Shown piece after piece: positions 4,919-25,935 of a DNA stretch of 64,000 nucleotides. The DNA lies in the NCBI GenBank assembly GCA_963771175.1, contig CAVYSY010000039.1, positions 192,001 to 256,000 on the forward strand. The letters run 5' to 3'. This DNA is from an uncultured delta proteobacterium (lineage in GTDB: Bacteria; Myxococcota; Myxococcia; Myxococcales; Myxococcaceae). The translations under genes were made by a program, and so were the position numbers. The notes beneath the pieces were generated by a model, which did no database searches, was not told the DNA's origin, and saw nothing but the letters and a program-made list of their open reading frames with translations. Positions within the stretch are counted from its first letter, which is position 1; the number at the start of each line of letters is the position of its first letter.

Positions 4919-5053
4919 GCTAACACGCCAAAGTGCGACCTTCTCCCACACCTGATTCAACTGGGGGCGTCACGCCCTGCAATCGCTCCGTCGGCCCTTC
5001 GTAGGACCGAGCGCACCGCCCCCGCGCGGCCACTCGCCCGGAGTCCTCGAACC

Positions 5054-20402: not shown

Positions 20403-20753
20403 CTATTCAGGATCCAAGGCCCAGGTCCCCTCTTCCCAGCGCTTCAGCGCCTCCCGAGCTTCAAAAGCAGCCAGTCCTACCCCCTTGGCGATCTCCTCCA
20501 AGACTACTTTGGCTTCCGCCGTCCGATGGCGGAGCAGGTAGACCGCAGCCATGCCTCGCACATCCACTCGTGGGTGCGTGAATAGCACGGCGAGCGCATC
20601 CCGTCCGGCATCACCCTAAGCACGCAGCTTTTTGAACGCGTCGCGACGCTTCGGGGCGTGCTTGTTTCCTGTCTTGGCGTTTCCGCGGAAGATCGCATCG
20701 ATCTGCGCCGCCGTATGCTGGGCGAATGCCTCAACAAGATCTACAAGATTCAT
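20403..20753 (-). pseudogene. DUF2019-like (SitI5-type) immunity gene with in-frame TAG
   Basis: MNLVDLVEAFAQHTAAQ...KKLRA*GDAGRDALAVLFTHPRVDVRGMAA...WEEGTWALDPE; stop at 20616-20618. Confidence 0.7.
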
Positions 20754-20783: not shown

Positions 20784-21155
20784 TCAAAGGGGCTTGAACG
20801 TGCCCGCCTTCCACTGTTCTAGCGTCCACTCCGCTGAAAAGCCAATCAGACCGTTAGGGGCTTTAGCGAGTTCGGTAAGCACCCGTTCCCCCTCATCTGG
20901 TGCGAACTCCAAGACCGATGCAGCAACCCAGCAACGGGTGCCCAGGTCTGGATCATCGAGCAATCTCAACAACTGTCGCTGCGCATCTAGACCTCTTGCA
21001 CGCAACTCCCTGTCGATTGCGACGAGAAGATCGAACATGCGATTTCCGTCCTTTGGCTTGCCCGCATAAATGGCCCGCCACCTCTCAGCGGAAAGAATCC
21101 TGGTTTTTTCAATGAGCTGCTCCGTTGAGAGTTTCTTCACCTCTGCCTTTTTCAT
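20784..21155 (-). CDS. DUF2019-like (SitI5-type) immunity protein
   Basis: LLDDPDLGTRCWVAA, A..TLEQWKAG; ATGA overlap with the toxin stop; lower GC. Confidence 0.75.
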   Translation of the reverse strand: MKKAEVKKLSTEQLIEKTRILSAERWRAIYAGKPKDGNRMFDLLVAIDRELRARGLDAQRQLLRLLDDPDLGTRCWVAASVLEFAPDEGERVLTELAKAPNGLIGFSAEWTLEQWKAGTFKPL

Positions 21156-21943
21156 GGAATGACCCCGAACTGCCTAAGAACCTTCAACCCGAAAGCGCGC
21201 TGTTCCTCATAGGACTTCGTGCGGAGCCATTCACGCACTACCAGACCACCCGTATCCCGGGATTTGGACGAGTAAAAGGCGCTTATTGCGTCATGCTTTG
21301 ACTTCTCGATCGCAATCACATTCTCGGTGTTGTGAATGGCTTCCGGACCGAAGCGCTCGATGTTCGCCTTGCGCTGTTCGACGATGTGGTGCCAGTGCTT
21401 GCCCTCACCTGCCGGCCCCATGAAGTCCTTGAAGTCATCAAAGGACTTGAACGCACGATAGCCGTTGGGAAGAAGCCTGCCCTCCTTGGGGATCCCACTC
21501 CCGCCTGCGGAGGACTTACCACCGCCGCTCCGGGCAGACATGGCAACGGCCGTGACCGGCAGGACAACTCGGATCGTCCCCTCGGGCACGGAGACGATGA
21601 CCCGCTCGGCCCCGGTTGCCGCATCCACCATGCGCAAGCCGGCGTTGACCTCTACTGCCCTCGAGGCTTGTCCAAAGCCCGGTAGCTTTGGTGCCTTGGA
21701 CACGAGTGCCGCGGTTTCGCCTACGGCCGCCGTCCCCACCATGACGAGAATGCGCACGCTGTTGGGGCCAATGACCCGCCCGAACCGCTCGCCCGCCTCG
21801 CGTAGTTCCGCGAAGGTGGAGGCTCGCGCCGCGTCCTCGGAGAGCTGCGCATACGCCCGGATCAGGTCGAAGAATTCCCATCCGAGGTAGCCCCACATGA
21901 GCACCGTAAACGCAGCGGCCACGCCCTTCGTGACCGGCTCGGG
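21152..21943 (-). CDS. SitA5-type toxin, C-terminal part (HNH-like nuclease tip), separated from its N-terminus by an insertion
   Basis: PEPVTKGVAA...GYLG, ELREAGERFGRVIG, KLPGF, tip WHHIVEQ...HNTEN...H. Confidence 0.8.
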   Translation of the reverse strand, partial: PEPVTKGVAAAFTVLMWGYLGWEFFDLIRAYAQLSEDAARASTFAELREAGERFGRVIGPNSVRILVMVGTAAVGETAALVSKAPKLPGFGQASRAVEVNAGLRMVDAATGAERVIVSVPEGTIRVVLPVTAVAMSARSGGGKSSAGGSGIPKEGRLLPNGYRAFKSFDDFKDFMGPAGEGKHWHHIVEQRKANIERFGPEAIHNTENVIAIEKSKHDAISAFYSSKSRDTGGLVVREWLRTKSYEEQRAFGLKVLRQFGVIP

Positions 21944-21990
21944 AAAGCCCCCAACGACGCACCCCCTTAAAGACGCAGCCGTCGAGAGAT

Positions 21991-22419
21991 TTGGTGGTCA
22001 TCACCCACCCGCTCCATCCGTTCGTGGGTCGCGCATTCCCCGTGCAGCAGCGCCTGCGCTACCTCGGCCGCCCCAGCGTCGTGCTGCTGTTTCCCGACGG
22101 CCGTCTCGCGAGGGTTCCGGAGGATTGGACGGACCTGCGGCCCAGGCCCCCACCGCTCGAGCTCCGAGGGAAATGTCCGAAGCTGCACCCTGAATCGCTC
22201 CGCGAGCTGAGTGCCCTTCTCGATGACTTGAGGCATAGGTCTCAGCTCCATGACCAGGAAGGTAGTGCGTCGGACGAGAAGCGCCAAGGGCCGGTCATCG
22301 CCGGGCGCGCTCTACGCCGCACTCCCCGCGGCGGCCCGGCACGAGCTGCTGGGCGTACTGGCCGACGTGCTGCTCAAGGCCGTCACCAAGGCTCCCGCCG
22401 GAAGCGAGGCAAGCGATGA
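21991..22419 (+). CDS. DUF5372-like (Y4bD/Y4pK-like) small protein; no ATG in the integrated state
   Basis: ITHPLHPFVGRAF...VPEDWTDL; frame closed upstream by TGA at 21931-21933. Confidence 0.65.
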   Translation: MVVITHPLHPFVGRAFPVQQRLRYLGRPSVVLLFPDGRLARVPEDWTDLRPRPPPLELRGKCPKLHPESLRELSALLDDLRHRSQLHDQEGSASDEKRQGPVIAGRALRRTPRGGPARAAGRTGRRAAQGRHQGSRRKRGKR

Positions 22420-22588
22420 CCACCAAGATTCGGCCAGAGCACCTGGCCAGACCCGCGCTGGTGTACATCCGCCAGTCCACCCTGTTGCAGGTCCACGAGC
22501 ACCGGGAGTCGACCGAGCGCCAGTACGCCCTGGTGGAGCTGGCCAAGAAACTCGGCTGGGACGCCACCCAGGTCGAGGTCATCGATGA
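22250..22588 (+). CDS. Small helical ORF overlapping the recombinase start
   Basis: AALPAAARHELLGVLADVLL helix; resembles ORFs preceding this recombinase class. Confidence 0.4.
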   Translation: MTRKVVRRTRSAKGRSSPGALYAALPAAARHELLGVLADVLLKAVTKAPAGSEASDDHQDSARAPGQTRAGVHPPVHPVAGPRAPGVDRAPVRPGGAGQETRLGRHPGRGHR

Positions 22589-24784
22589 GGACCTGGGTCA
22601 GAGCGGTGCCAGTGCCGCCCGGCGCAAGGGCTTCCAGCGGCTGACGGCCGAGGTCAGCCTCGGCAAGGTGGGCGCCGTCTTGTCGCTGGAGGTGTCACGA
22701 CTGGCGCGCTCCTCGTCCGATTGGCACCGGCTGCTGGATTTGTGCGCGCTCTCCGACACGCTCATCATCGACGACGATGGCGTCTACGACGCCAACGACT
22801 TCAACGACCGGCTGGTGCTGGGCATGAAGGGCACCATGAGTGACGCCGAGCGCCACTCCATGCGCCTGCGCCTGCAAGGCGGCATCCTGCACAAGGCGAA
22901 GAAGGGCGAGCTCGTCTATCCCCCGCCCACTGGCTACGTCTTCGAGGACGGTGCGCTCGTCTTCGACCCCGACGAGCAGGTGCAGAAAGCCATCCGTCTC
23001 CTCTTCGAGCGCTTCCGCCTGGAAGGCAGTGTCAGCGGCGCCGTGCGCTACTTCACCCGCAACAAACTGCTCTTCCCCTCACGCCATGCTCACCGGGGCG
23101 CTCCGGCGGAAATTCGCTGGCACGCGCTGGACGTCCCGCGTGCCGTGTCCATCCTGCGCAATCCGGTGTACGCCGGAGCCTACGCCTGGGGCCGCAATCG
23201 CGACCGGCGCGTCCTCGTCGAAGGAGAGGTGCGACGCAAGCACGAGACGCTCCAGGAGCCGGAGCAGTGGCATGCGTTCCTGCGCGATGCGCACCCCGCG
23301 TACATCTCCTGGGAGCAGTACCTGGAGAACTTGAAGCGCCTCGAAGACAACGCCGTCAGAGGGGCGCATGTGCGTGGCCGAGGTGCGCCACGCGGAGGTC
23401 CGGCGCTGCTCCAGGGGCTGGTGCTGTGCGGCAAGTGTGGCCGGCGGATGCACCCGGTCTACTCCGTCGCCGACGACCCCAGCTACCAGTGCAGCCGGCG
23501 CCTGTACGGCGAGGGCAACTGCTGGTCCACGGTCGCGCGCCGCATTGACGACAAGATAGTCGAGACCCTGCTGACGGCTTTCGCCCCGCCCGAATTGGAC
23601 CTGTCGCTGGCGGTCCTCAAGGAGGTGGAGCGGCAGGCCGAGGAGGTCAACCGCCAGTGGAAGCTGCGCCTGGAGCGGGTGCGCTACGAGGCCCAGCGCG
23701 CCGAGCGCCAGTACAACGCCGTGGAGCCGGAGAATCGCGTGGTGGCCCGCACGCTGGAGTCGCGCTGGAACCAGAAGCTCGAGGAGCTCGCGCGGGTCGA
23801 GCATGAGTACGAGCAGGCCAGGAGCACGAGTCCGCTGGAACTCTCGGACAAGGACAAGAAGAAGATACTGGCGCTGGCGGGCGACCTGCCCGGGCTGTGG
23901 AACGCGCCGACCACGACCAACTCGGACAAGAAGCGGATACTGCGGCTGCTCATCCAGGAGGTGGTGCTCTCGCCGGTGGACGTGCCAAAGCGGGCCACTC
24001 GCATCCGCATCCTCTGGAAGACGGGAGCCATCACCGAGTTGCAAACGCCTCGGCCCACGTTTTCTGAATCCAGAAGGACGCCACCCCAGGTCATCGCCGA
24101 GATTCGCAAGCTCGCCAGGAAGCATTACAGCGATCCGCAGATAGCAGAGGAGCTCAACCGGGGTGGCTTGAAGAGCGGCCTGCGTCACGCCTTCACCCGC
24201 CGCCTGGTGGCGGGCATTCGCAAGCGACAGGGCATTCGTGCTGGACGAACTGCTGGAGGATTCAGCATCCGGGCGCCCGAGCGCGACGAGCAGGGGCTTT
24301 ATTCCATCCGCGGTCTGATCGCGCATTTCGGAGTGACGGCCCCCATGGTCCACTACTGGGTCAACCGCGGCCTGATCACCCCCGTGCACAGCCGCACGCC
24401 CATACACAAATGGAACAAGGAGCCCTTCTGGTTCGAGATGACGCCCGAATTGGAGGCGCTCCTGGCCAAGGCGCGCGACCAGGGCTACGCAGCCGGGCAA
24501 GCCGCCGCATCCGCGGTCACAGTGGCCATCCGCGCCCGCCGGCTCGTCTGCCGGACGGCCGCTACTCCACGCGCGGTCTCGTCGAGAAGTACGGAGTAAC
24601 CTGGGACACCGTGCGGTACTGGATAAAGAAGGGCATCCTCACGCCCGAGCGCGCTCTACCGAAGGGCAATTTCTGCTTCCGGCTGACCCACGAGGTGGAG
24701 CGGCACATCCAGGCCGCCCTTGCTCGAAAACGGACGCCACGCGGTCCCACGCAGCACCACCATCATCACCTCCATTCCCGCTAA
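22416..24784 (+). CDS. Large serine recombinase (resolvase, recombinase, Zn ribbon, coiled coil, tandem HTH); frameshift near 24500-24530
   Basis: ALVYIRQST catalytic Ser, EVSRLARS, ILRNPVYAG, LLQGLVLCGKCG, AERQYNAVEPENRVVARTLE. Confidence 0.9.
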
Positions 24785-24810
24785 CACAGGTGTCCTGATG
24801 CAGGTTCCGG

Positions 24811-25449
24811 GGCCAGCAAGAGCGCCATGTACGTCGCGATCGCGAGGCTGACGGTCGCCAGCACCCGCGTGGGGTCGAGCATGGCCCGCACTTCCGCGCC
24901 CACTCCTTCCAGTGCCGGTCCCACCGCCAGGGCCAGGGCAATGCTGCGCTTGTCGTCGGCTTGCAGAAAGGGACCGTCTTCCAACAGCGTCAGACAATCA
25001 CTGGGAGTGCCGCGCCGCTCGCAATAACCCCCATACGACGTCAACAGCTCCGATTGCCCTGCATCTCCACCCGAGCCGCCGGTGCCCGGCGCCAGCCTGC
25101 CGCCATGTTGCACGGGGGCGGAGGAGGCCACCCGCAGCGGAATGTTGAGCACCAGCGTCGCCAGGGCGGCATGGAACTCCGCGTCCCCAATCCGCACCGG
25201 TTCGAAGTCCGTGGGCAACCTGGCGAAGACGAGCACGCCGTTGTCCACCTCATCGCTCCGTGCCGCCGTTCGCTCCTTCGTCTCCAGGGACTCCCGAGGT
25301 GTTGGCCACTGGTCGCGATACGTCGTCAGCCGTCCACCCGGGTGCGCCCCCGTGGAACACGCCCCCAGGAGCACCAGCCCAACTAGAGCCAGCGCGCCCA
25401 CGCGAGAGCACGGTCGCTCACCAAAGGGGGGCAGATGATGAGTAGACAT
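24811..25449 (-). CDS. SitA5-type toxin lipoprotein, N-terminal part
   Basis: Lipobox LLGAC; YGGYCERRGTPSDCLTLL, DDKRSIALALA, YMALLLAP; AGGAGAGG RBS. Confidence 0.8.
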
Positions 25450-25935
25450 GGCCGCACCTCTCCTGGCGAGTCGTACGAGCTGAAACGCGCCGCTTATCCG
25501 AGGGGCCAGATGACAAGTGGTCGAGGTGCTCCCTGTCAAGCCGTCGGGACTGGTGGGGAGTCGGGTCGGTTATTCGAGTCACCCACTACGAACCACCACG
25601 GTCCGTGAGCAACTCGTGAGGAGTTCCGGCGTTCCGCGTCGCGCGCCAGGCTCGAGCGAAACCGCCCGAGACCACGAAGCGGGGAAACGTCACCCACTGC
25701 TCGACGAAGATCCGCGCCAGGACGTCGAAGGGGCCACGGAAGGGCACCGGCGCTGTCATTTCGAGACGGTGACCGCGACCCTGGAGTGCTCCCGCCAGGC
25801 CCTCGCGTGGCCAGCAGCGGCGGCCATACCGGCAAGGGCACTCCAGAGGTGACGCGAGGGGCTCCAGTGATGCGCACGCCTACATCGTACACCCATGAGA
25901 GTGCGCGGCAGTCGCCCCTTCGCGTCCACTCCGTG

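Follow-up and report, generated by a model that had tools for sequence, protein, structure and literature searches.

A DUF5372 gene that may span the attachment site of a small serine-recombinase element and be completed by circularization

The 64,000-nucleotide stretch of DNA analyzed here (the window) comprises positions 192,001 to 256,000 of contig CAVYSY010000039.1 (assembly GCA_963771175.1), from an uncultured delta proteobacterium of the family Myxococcaceae. Between window positions 21944 and 24810 it carries an element of 2867 bp that consists of two plus-strand genes without cargo, one for a DUF5372 protein and one for a large serine recombinase (LSR). The domains of the recombinase and the 2-bp crossover shared by the two ends indicate that this is an LSR integrative element. 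When its ends are joined, as they would be in an excised circle, an ATG and a Shine-Dalgarno (SD)-like motif from the right end come to stand in frame before the DUF5372 sequence at the left end, and an in-frame start supplied by the right end recurs in every relative for which both ends could be placed. We consider it probable that the DUF5372 gene spans attP, that its full-length product is made from the excised form, and that this product sets the reaction performed by the recombinase.

The boundaries of the element can be recognized both from its relatives and from the gene that it interrupts. Similarity in blastn comparisons with nine related elements in unrelated flanks stops at 21935-21945 on the left and at 24808-24810 on the right. 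The interrupted gene lies on the minus strand and encodes a polymorphic toxin for which we use the family name given by our sources, SitA5. Its N-terminal part (24811-25539) aligns to residues 1-205 of an intact homolog of 468 amino acids (P0280) and its C-terminal part (21152-21943) to residues 206-468, with no gap and nothing missing. A genome scan for relatives returned 18 loci, all in Myxococcota, and in eight other loci paralogous flanks with 40-67% identity adjoin the element at this same residue. The element thus homes to one conserved motif, and the insertions represent independent events. Within the toxin, this motif lies between two hydrophobic stretches.

An identical dinucleotide, without a longer target duplication, is present at both edges of each element: GG in the window (21942-21943 at attL, on the left, and 24809-24810 on the right), L001-L004 and L007, AA in L008-L010, GA in L005, and TT in some of the more distant relatives described below. 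The conserved left end is preceded by GG in all GG-type relatives and by AA or GA in the others. Similarity to relatives begins with the left end proper (21944-21969, plus strand), which would form the P' arm of attP and encode leader codons 5 to about 13. The right end (24783-24808, plus strand), which would form the P arm, is conserved in all nine loci that have one, and it appears to have dyad symmetry with the left end. An LSR attP would be expected to measure about 50 bp and to be imperfectly symmetrical; the symmetry here is modest. In the window the left arm matches the mirrored right arm at 11 of 26 positions, including a GGTG/CACC pair, against 6.6 in shuffled sequences; for the joined ends of the elements generally, 9-13 of 26 positions are mirrored against about 6.5, and a value as high as the one observed turns up in 18 to 367 of 2000 shuffles. 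Given these ends and the contiguous host homolog, the join of 24810 to 21944 is correct, and any excision that restored the host frame would yield the same DUF5372 frame. Indirect signs that such elements move are the presence of several copies per genome in different paralogous targets and the many homologs on element-sized contigs.

A script that joins 24798-24810 to 21944-22419 returns 489 nt with one stop, at the end, encoding 162 amino acids from the ATG at 24798. An earlier note, made from the window alone, had described this frame; its observations that the integrated DUF5372 frame lacks an ATG and is closed by a TGA at 21931-21933, and that the joined ends read through without stops, both hold. 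The right end contributes the ATG and the first four codons (24798-24810, plus strand), closing with the right copy of GG. The SD-like AGGTG (24788-24792, plus strand) stands 5 nt before the ATG, a spacing that is the same in all eight myxobacterial elements checked, and overlaps the mirrored outer att motif. In the integrated state this ATG reads merely a 17-codon frame into the flank. The left end contributes a leader (21944-21993, plus strand) that has no ATG of its own and is open and ungapped in all 17 left ends that were aligned. In the joined frame the crossover is at codons 4-5, and attP lies within codons 2 to about 13. The earlier note also placed the AGGTG and ATG 13 nt after the recombinase stop. 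Both signals are there, but the TAA at 24782-24784 is the stop of the intact 789-amino-acid recombinase and not of the present, frameshifted copy.

In a single copy, an ATG falls in frame by chance one time in three, so it is the comparative data that carry the case beyond chance. In 23 of the 23 elements with both ends placed (ten myxobacterial elements including that of the window, seven rhizobial elements, L037, L038, L027, L031, L034 and L028), an in-frame start precedes the crossover by 8-14 nt, and the frame then stays open as far as the domain; the start is an ATG in 22 of them and a GTG in L037. In ten representative elements, the final 30 nt ahead of the crossover hold 11 ATGs in total, of which 10 are in the DUF5372 frame, the odd one being the last sense codon of the L037 recombinase. 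If one element is taken per lineage, four of four are in frame, for which our own arithmetic gives a probability of about 0.012 at one third each. Most elements have the start at -11 relative to the crossover, and every alternative position (-14 and -8) is also in frame. Likewise, the leaders of 21, 22, 23, 24 and 26 codons differ by whole codons only. With the exception of L034, every element has an SD-like motif 4-8 nt before the start that it uses, and such motifs are present in lineages B, C and D (see below) as well as among the myxobacterial elements. Moreover, the stretch from the left end to the domain motif contains no in-frame ATG, GTG or TTG in L037, L038, L027, L031 and six of the seven rhizobial copies, the motif in the latter being the conserved THPFHP. 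Because lineages B and C thus mostly lack a canonical start in the integrated state, full-length protein could there start canonically only across the junction. The in-silico joining of other DUF5372-recombinase elements, which the earlier note had suggested, therefore finds the in-frame start in four deep lineages. The junction-spanning frame is confirmed as an observation, and its interpretation as an attP-spanning gene completed in the circle is supported.

The four lineages are well separated, with recombinases that are 40-47% identical, DUF5372 domains that are 24-46% identical and end DNA that has largely diverged; distant DUF5372 genes were found by tblastn against plasmids. In lineage A, which is myxobacterial, the junction is in frame in all ten elements with both ends (that of the window, L001-L005 and L007-L010). 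Taken alone these are weak evidence, because their DNA is 78-97% identical with no indels near the ends. Eight further lineage A loci were left out since they are cut by contig ends (L006, L011, L012, L013, L014-L016 and L018), as was L017, an orphan DUF5372 remnant. Lineage B, from Sinorhizobium, Rhizobium and Microvirga, has three genes (DUF5372, a helix-turn-helix gene and the LSR) in a block of about 3.3 kb, and 58 records contain a single place that accounts for at least 80% of the query. Seven copies with at least five different flanks and a TT crossover all have the junction in frame. Annotation places the DUF5372 start of L022 at position 447, which by our count is an ATA, and that of L019 at position 5043, a CTG that lies 42 nt inside the homology. 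Two relatives of lineage B show how the start can shift. L037, from Burkholderia sp. RPE67, has AAA at the ATG position (-11) and keeps an in-frame GTG one codon upstream (-14), and L038, from Caballeronia, has an ATG at that upstream codon and a leader two codons longer.

Lineage C comprises elements from Pseudomonas putida pWW53 (L027), Mycetohabitans (L031) and Mesorhizobium (L034), which have different flanks, shared ends and an AA crossover. The junction is in frame in all three; L034 has ATGs at -14 and -8 and none at -11. The first canonical in-frame start on the integrated DNA comes at codon 65 in L027 and at about codon 115-119 in L031, and the DUF5372 gene is unannotated in all three loci. 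Lineage D is a single copy from Candidatus Chlorohelix, of the Chloroflexota (L028), with a TT crossover and the junction in frame from a start at -14, before which AGGAGGTG stands at a distance of 4 nt. The crossover of L028 was placed by reading the split frame of an ISL3 transposase; a DNA search with the right flank matched the locus alone. As in that case, the elements outside lineage A sit in genes of other mobile elements, namely istA of the IS21 family, a group II intron reverse transcriptase/maturase and the ISL3 transposase (L028, 7373-9013). Such host genes were read in the flanks of L019, L021-L026 and L037, of L027, L031 and L034-L036, and of L028, each insertion lying at an apparent conserved protein motif read on the opposite strand. 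On two plasmids, from a rhizobium and a Paraburkholderia, a second recombinase gene with a small upstream open reading frame lies a few kilobases upstream of the DUF5372 element (L019, 1876-4102; L020, 2212-3769).

The DUF5372 domain of the window (22000-22230, plus strand) matches PF17342 with an E value of 7.5e-9 and 35.9 bits against a cut-off of 25, over model positions 1-77 of 78 and residues 23-99 as numbered on the stop-to-stop frame that opens after the TGA at 21931-21933. Its variable columns at codon positions 1, 2 and 3 number 22, 11 and 49, which is a coding signature. An AlphaFold2 model built from 136 sequences has a mean predicted local distance difference test (pLDDT) score of 79.5, rising above 87 in the domain, and predicts a small beta-barrel (strands within residues 20-62), a helix (86-111) and a low-confidence tail. 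This arginine-rich tail (22231-22419, plus strand; pLDDT 52-64) runs to the TGA at 22417-22419 and has 29, 26 and 22 variable columns at the three codon positions. Neither it nor the leader shows a coding signature in any frame, and selection on the peptide is not claimed for them. The DUF5372 stop overlaps the recombinase start as ATGA at 22416-22419, and the frame is open to this same point in ten of ten myxobacterial elements. From our comparison of frame ends with annotated starts, a stop/start overlap is also found in the lineage C loci L031, L034 and L036, and a one-base overlap in L027. A tail that has no codon signature and is nevertheless open up to the recombinase ATG is consistent with selection that acts on translational coupling and not on the tail peptide. 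The recombinase also has a GAGG of its own before the ATG in seven of eight myxobacterial elements, placed 6 nt before ATG 22416 in the window. A further ATG frame of 112 codons (22250-22588, plus strand) overlaps the DUF5372 tail and the recombinase start in the third frame and reads as helical; no Pfam match and no clear codon-position signature was found for it.

A search for fold relatives (Foldseek against PDB) gave nothing but generic small barrels, such as ribosomal eS4-type proteins and NdhS, with a best E value of 4e-3, and no family was assigned. DUF5372 forms 151 representative clusters at E values up to 0.001, and the recombinase clade that accompanies it has 7988 scored relatives at E values up to 1e-10. 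A tblastn search of 50,697 phage records for DUF5372 gave no hit at E values up to 0.01.

Structure prediction connects the two proteins of the element. DUF5372 was modeled with the intact recombinase of L001, and the complex scored 0.67 against 0.21 for the best of three controls. Of 157 solved complexes, 116 attain the score mark used, against 2 of 215 mismatched pairs; because the alignments were our own, these counts are rough. At least 89% of contacts agree between runs, and the partner pLDDT is at least 68. Predicted contacts join LSR residues 337-343, 364, 388-404 and 474-540 to DUF5372 residues 25-30, 53-59 and 74-106; on the recombinase these correspond to the zinc ribbon (Pfam 331-372) and to segments flanking what we read as the coiled coil. 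All verified recombination directionality factors (RDFs) examined in one study are predicted to bind the junction of zinc domain and coiled coil, according to the accessible part of that paper (PMC12286644). Since solved LSR-RDF complexes exist (SPbeta chains, encountered in our structure search), part of the complex score may reflect likeness to them. From these models, DUF5372 most likely binds the recombinase at the zinc-ribbon/coiled-coil junction. The earlier note had suggested a directionality, replication or regulatory factor; the predicted contact favors the first of these ideas, whereas a replication role finds no support of any kind.

These results can be combined in a simple scheme. 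While the element is integrated, its start signals (SD, ATG and four codons) are separated by 2.9 kb from the remaining 158 codons, and the two pieces stand in the wrong order. Excision would join the ends, and the circle would become a closed polycistron that reads SD-ATG, leader (attP), DUF5372, ATGA, recombinase, 13 nt and again SD-ATG. The closed-loop operon proposed earlier fits well with this order, given the ATGA overlap at 22416-22419 and start signals located 13 nt past the ancestral recombinase stop. Efficient synthesis of full-length DUF5372 would thus be tied to the excised (or tandem) state, the overlapping stop and start would probably yield extra recombinase too, and the integrated and circular states are predicted to give different products. 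DUF5372 might then set which reaction the recombinase performs, most plausibly the re-integration of a non-replicating circle. We take the split to be translational, because no sigma-70-like promoter (at least 8 of 12 matches) was found in 21700-25000 or within 80 nt on either side of six representative joined junctions. A promoter assembled at the junction, as a transcriptional switch, was accordingly dropped from consideration as far as sigma-70-type promoters are concerned.

A more specific version of this scheme, which we hold only tentatively and regard as doubtful, makes DUF5372 a reverse directionality factor. The recombinase alone, translated from its own GAGG, would excise the element rarely, and excision would assemble the DUF5372 start signals. 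DUF5372 would then clamp the zinc-ribbon/coiled-coil junction and turn the enzyme to integration, and integration in turn would dismantle the gene. Synthesis of the factor would be gated by the topology of its own DNA, giving a two-state switch that needs no regulator beyond the crossover itself. If true, such a switch would be conserved in at least three phyla, in elements that home into toxin, insertion sequence transposase and group II intron genes.

Several considerations weigh against the proposal of an attP-spanning gene whose product acts on the recombinase. With regard to function, a classical RDF made solely in the circle would hinder re-integration; for this reason an integration-promoting or state-setting role is favored, a direction of effect that we infer. 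More generally, the case for translation from the junction ATG, for binding and for the direction of effect is drawn from DNA. With regard to sampling, kinship within lineages is close: L008-L010 all come from the genome of Cystobacter fuscus Cbf 10, and L021 has its flanks in common with L026. For L028, L037 and L038 a single copy each was available, and we placed the ends by reading the host genes that these elements split; in lineages C and D, the arguments from host motifs likewise depend on our reading of the printed sequence and not on an empty site. Left out were seven plasmid loci in which the recombinase is missing or broken and no right end was placed (L020, L029, L030, L032, L033, L035 and L036). 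Among these, the actinobacterial loci L029, L032 and L033 have recombinase genes that are broken or replaced, and L032, L033 and L036 have a GTG near the domain start. L037 lacks the ATG, as described. Finally, an internal ATG in L007, an ATG at the motif in L034 and a TTG in L028 are possible starts in the integrated state.

A different kind of doubt arises because the start signals coincide with DNA to which the recombinase is expected to bind. According to the half-site scheme in PMC12286644, the zinc domain binds the outer segment, and the recombinase domain binds the inner 12 bases. The junction ATG lies in these inner 12 bases, and AGGTG, which in the window's family is mirrored by CACC in the other arm, lies where the outer DNA-binding domain of the LSR is expected. 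Both signals may therefore be conserved in part because the recombinase binds there, and the motifs conserved in the leader may be att-site DNA; the leader has 8, 11 and 7 variable columns at codon positions 1, 2 and 3, with no excess at the third. It could thus be argued that the right end is kept for recombinase binding alone, that the frame stays open because of G+C richness, and that nothing is translated across attP. Such an account would explain the dyad symmetry of the arms with its mirrored GGTG/CACC and the absence of a coding signature in the leader, the proline at codon 4 would follow from the conserved CC beside the crossover, and stops are rare at 67% G+C. We nevertheless regard it as very unlikely. 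In most lineages the other arm has no mirrored counterpart of the ATG. The ATG also shifts relative to the crossover by multiples of 3 nt, with AGGTG moving along. Binding alone also does not account for the 10 of 11 terminal ATGs in frame or for leaders that differ by whole codons across lineages whose recombinases are 40-47% identical, and several lineages would be left with a well-conserved domain that has no start codon.

The integrated state of the window itself offers another start. TTG 21991 and GTG 21994 (21991-21996, plus strand) are the sole in-frame ATG, GTG or TTG codons between the TGA at 21931-21933 and the domain; GTG 21994 is kept in 17 of 17 aligned left ends, the TTG is not, and four of eight database homologs are annotated as starting at the GTG. 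These points count against a gene that is silent until excision. The claim that the gene is full-length only in the circle thus stands for lineages B and C, which mostly lack a canonical integrated start, and does not stand in the same form for the window's family, where GTG 21994 could give the whole domain. In that family the switch may be between a long and a short form rather than between on and off. Generalized to all elements, this would mean that the chromosome yields a bare domain, from GTG 21994 or from near-cognate codons elsewhere, and that the circle ATG adds a 23-residue leader, so that form or amount changes and not presence. In its favor, besides the conserved GTG and the PGAP-style annotations that begin there, many representative proteins are called from the domain start, and the leader is unstructured in the model and outside the named predicted interface. 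However, no SD-like 4-mer occurs within 22 nt upstream of GTG 21994 in any of eight myxobacterial elements, most lineage B and C elements, as listed above, have no canonical start at this place, and a valine would be expected at that residue anyway if the codon were merely internal. We consider two such isoforms unlikely, and prefer the reading in which translation of the full-length protein depends on the junction.

The recombinase gene of the window raises a further objection, which concerns this copy rather than the family. The gene (22416-24784, plus strand) encodes Resolvase (PF00239, E 1.2e-20), Recombinase (PF07508, E 5.5e-14), Zn_ribbon_recom (PF13408, E 3.9e-8) and MerR-like domains, the same domains as in the intact relative L001; a weak match to the SPbeta integrase chain 9dxh was also found. 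Compared with seven relatives, it has gained one base at 24492 and lost two after 24510, so that reading from ATG 22416 ends at 24599 and the last, second MerR-like repeat is shifted into another frame (24410-24784). Intact relatives encode a recombinase of 789 amino acids that ends at a TAA equivalent to 24782-24784, and L002 and L003 are also frameshifted, by a different additional base near the position equivalent to 23839. The window copy may therefore be immobile, and its switch may never be thrown. It is quite possible, at somewhat less than an even chance in our view, that whatever the family does, this element is a fossil that no longer excises and whose split gene is never rejoined, given that the two indels take the second MerR-like repeat out of frame. 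On the other hand, sequencing errors could explain both indels, which fall in a G+C-rich run; a second, intact copy elsewhere in the genome could act in trans; and the DUF5372 frame, both ends and both copies of GG are intact.

The proposed attP-spanning gene can be compared with several systems in which integration alters a gene. In archaeal viruses and plasmids with "suicidal" integrases of the SSV type (SSV1, pTN3 and pT26-2), the site of recombination falls within one of the element's own genes, which is whole only in the circle; the accessible portion of a review describes such self-disrupting recombinases as found exclusively in archaea (PMC8371274). As in these archaeal elements, the crossover of all 23 DUF5372 elements lies inside an open frame that integration splits. 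The SSV-type enzymes are tyrosine recombinases that split their own genes into two large pieces, whereas the DUF5372 element is bacterial, keeps its serine recombinase gene whole inside the element (22416-24784), and has an accessory gene that loses an SD, an ATG and four codons. In mycobacteriophage BPs and its relatives, which show integration-dependent immunity, attP lies in a regulatory gene and the free and integrated forms yield different products, as reported in the available part of PMC4557955. The DUF5372 element differs in the end of the gene that is affected, its 5' start signals being the part removed. In BPs-type phages integration reportedly removes the 3' end of the repressor gene, and the integrases are said to be tyrosine recombinases. 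Junction promoters across the joined ends are likewise said to operate for tnpX of Tn4451 and in IS911 and IS30 circles. For the int gene of ICEKp1, PMC13023037 describes promoter switching, in which the expression of recombination genes is altered once the ends are joined, and re-integration of the element is favored. These last systems act on transcription, whereas the DUF5372 element splits a translation start and has a reading frame that runs through attP.

Among LSR systems, DUF5372 resembles the RDFs (gp47, gp3, SprB and others) in being a small protein, of a group with diverse folds, that is encoded with its LSR and predicted to sit on the zinc-domain/coiled-coil junction. It differs in that the known RDFs are made in the integrated state for excision, while the DUF5372 start signals would be assembled by excision, and in having no sequence or fold relative among solved structures beyond the Foldseek matches given above. 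The accessible text of the RDF study (PMC12286644) contains no mention of DUF, SH3, beta-barrel, transposon or TnpX. Another very small LSR element of non-phage type, gin, interrupts gerE of Bacillus cereus and restores it on excision, according to the available part of PMC5595907. As described there, gin is developmentally programmed and has a single site, with no mention in that part of an attP-spanning gene; DUF5372 elements, in contrast, are multi-copy and target paralogous gene families. Our literature search, with subscription journals largely outside its scope, found no paper on DUF5372, nor any report that circularization provides the SD and start codon of an accessory gene in a bacterial element with a serine recombinase.

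If correct, the attP-spanning arrangement would give the uncharacterized DUF5372 family a concrete, testable function. It would also add a translational mode, in which an SD and a start codon are split off, to the ways in which mobile elements sense whether they are integrated or free, here in bacteria and with serine recombinases. The recurrent annotation failures of DUF5372 genes, which are given odd starts, truncated or not called at all, would be accounted for as well. For tool building, the elements would represent autonomous LSR systems of 2.4-3.3 kb with a candidate built-in directionality partner, in which close relatives vary in crossover dinucleotide (GG, AA, GA) and in target family.

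The latter variation is visible among the myxobacterial elements, which use a second target family besides sitA5. The flanks of L008-L010, L005 and L018 hold a short plus-strand frame that is interrupted about 25 codons after its ATG, and the elements in this target carry an AA or GA crossover and not GG, so that close relatives differ in crossover and target together. Many of the recombinase homologs are found on contigs of 2.6-2.9 kb, the size of an element (for example P0165, P0170, P0172, P0174, P0181 and P0191). These contigs might be collapsed multi-copy repeats or possibly assembled circles. In the case of L006, which is 2762 nt long, the contig names give a coverage of 66.7 against 18-25 for flanking contigs, which fits a three-copy repeat. 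Immediately downstream of the interrupted toxin gene in the window lies a DUF2019 frame (20787-21155, minus strand; E 1.8e-5), followed by a second DUF2019-like frame (20406-20753, minus strand) that is apparently broken and split over two open reading frames. These are plausible candidates for immunity genes of the SitA5 toxin.

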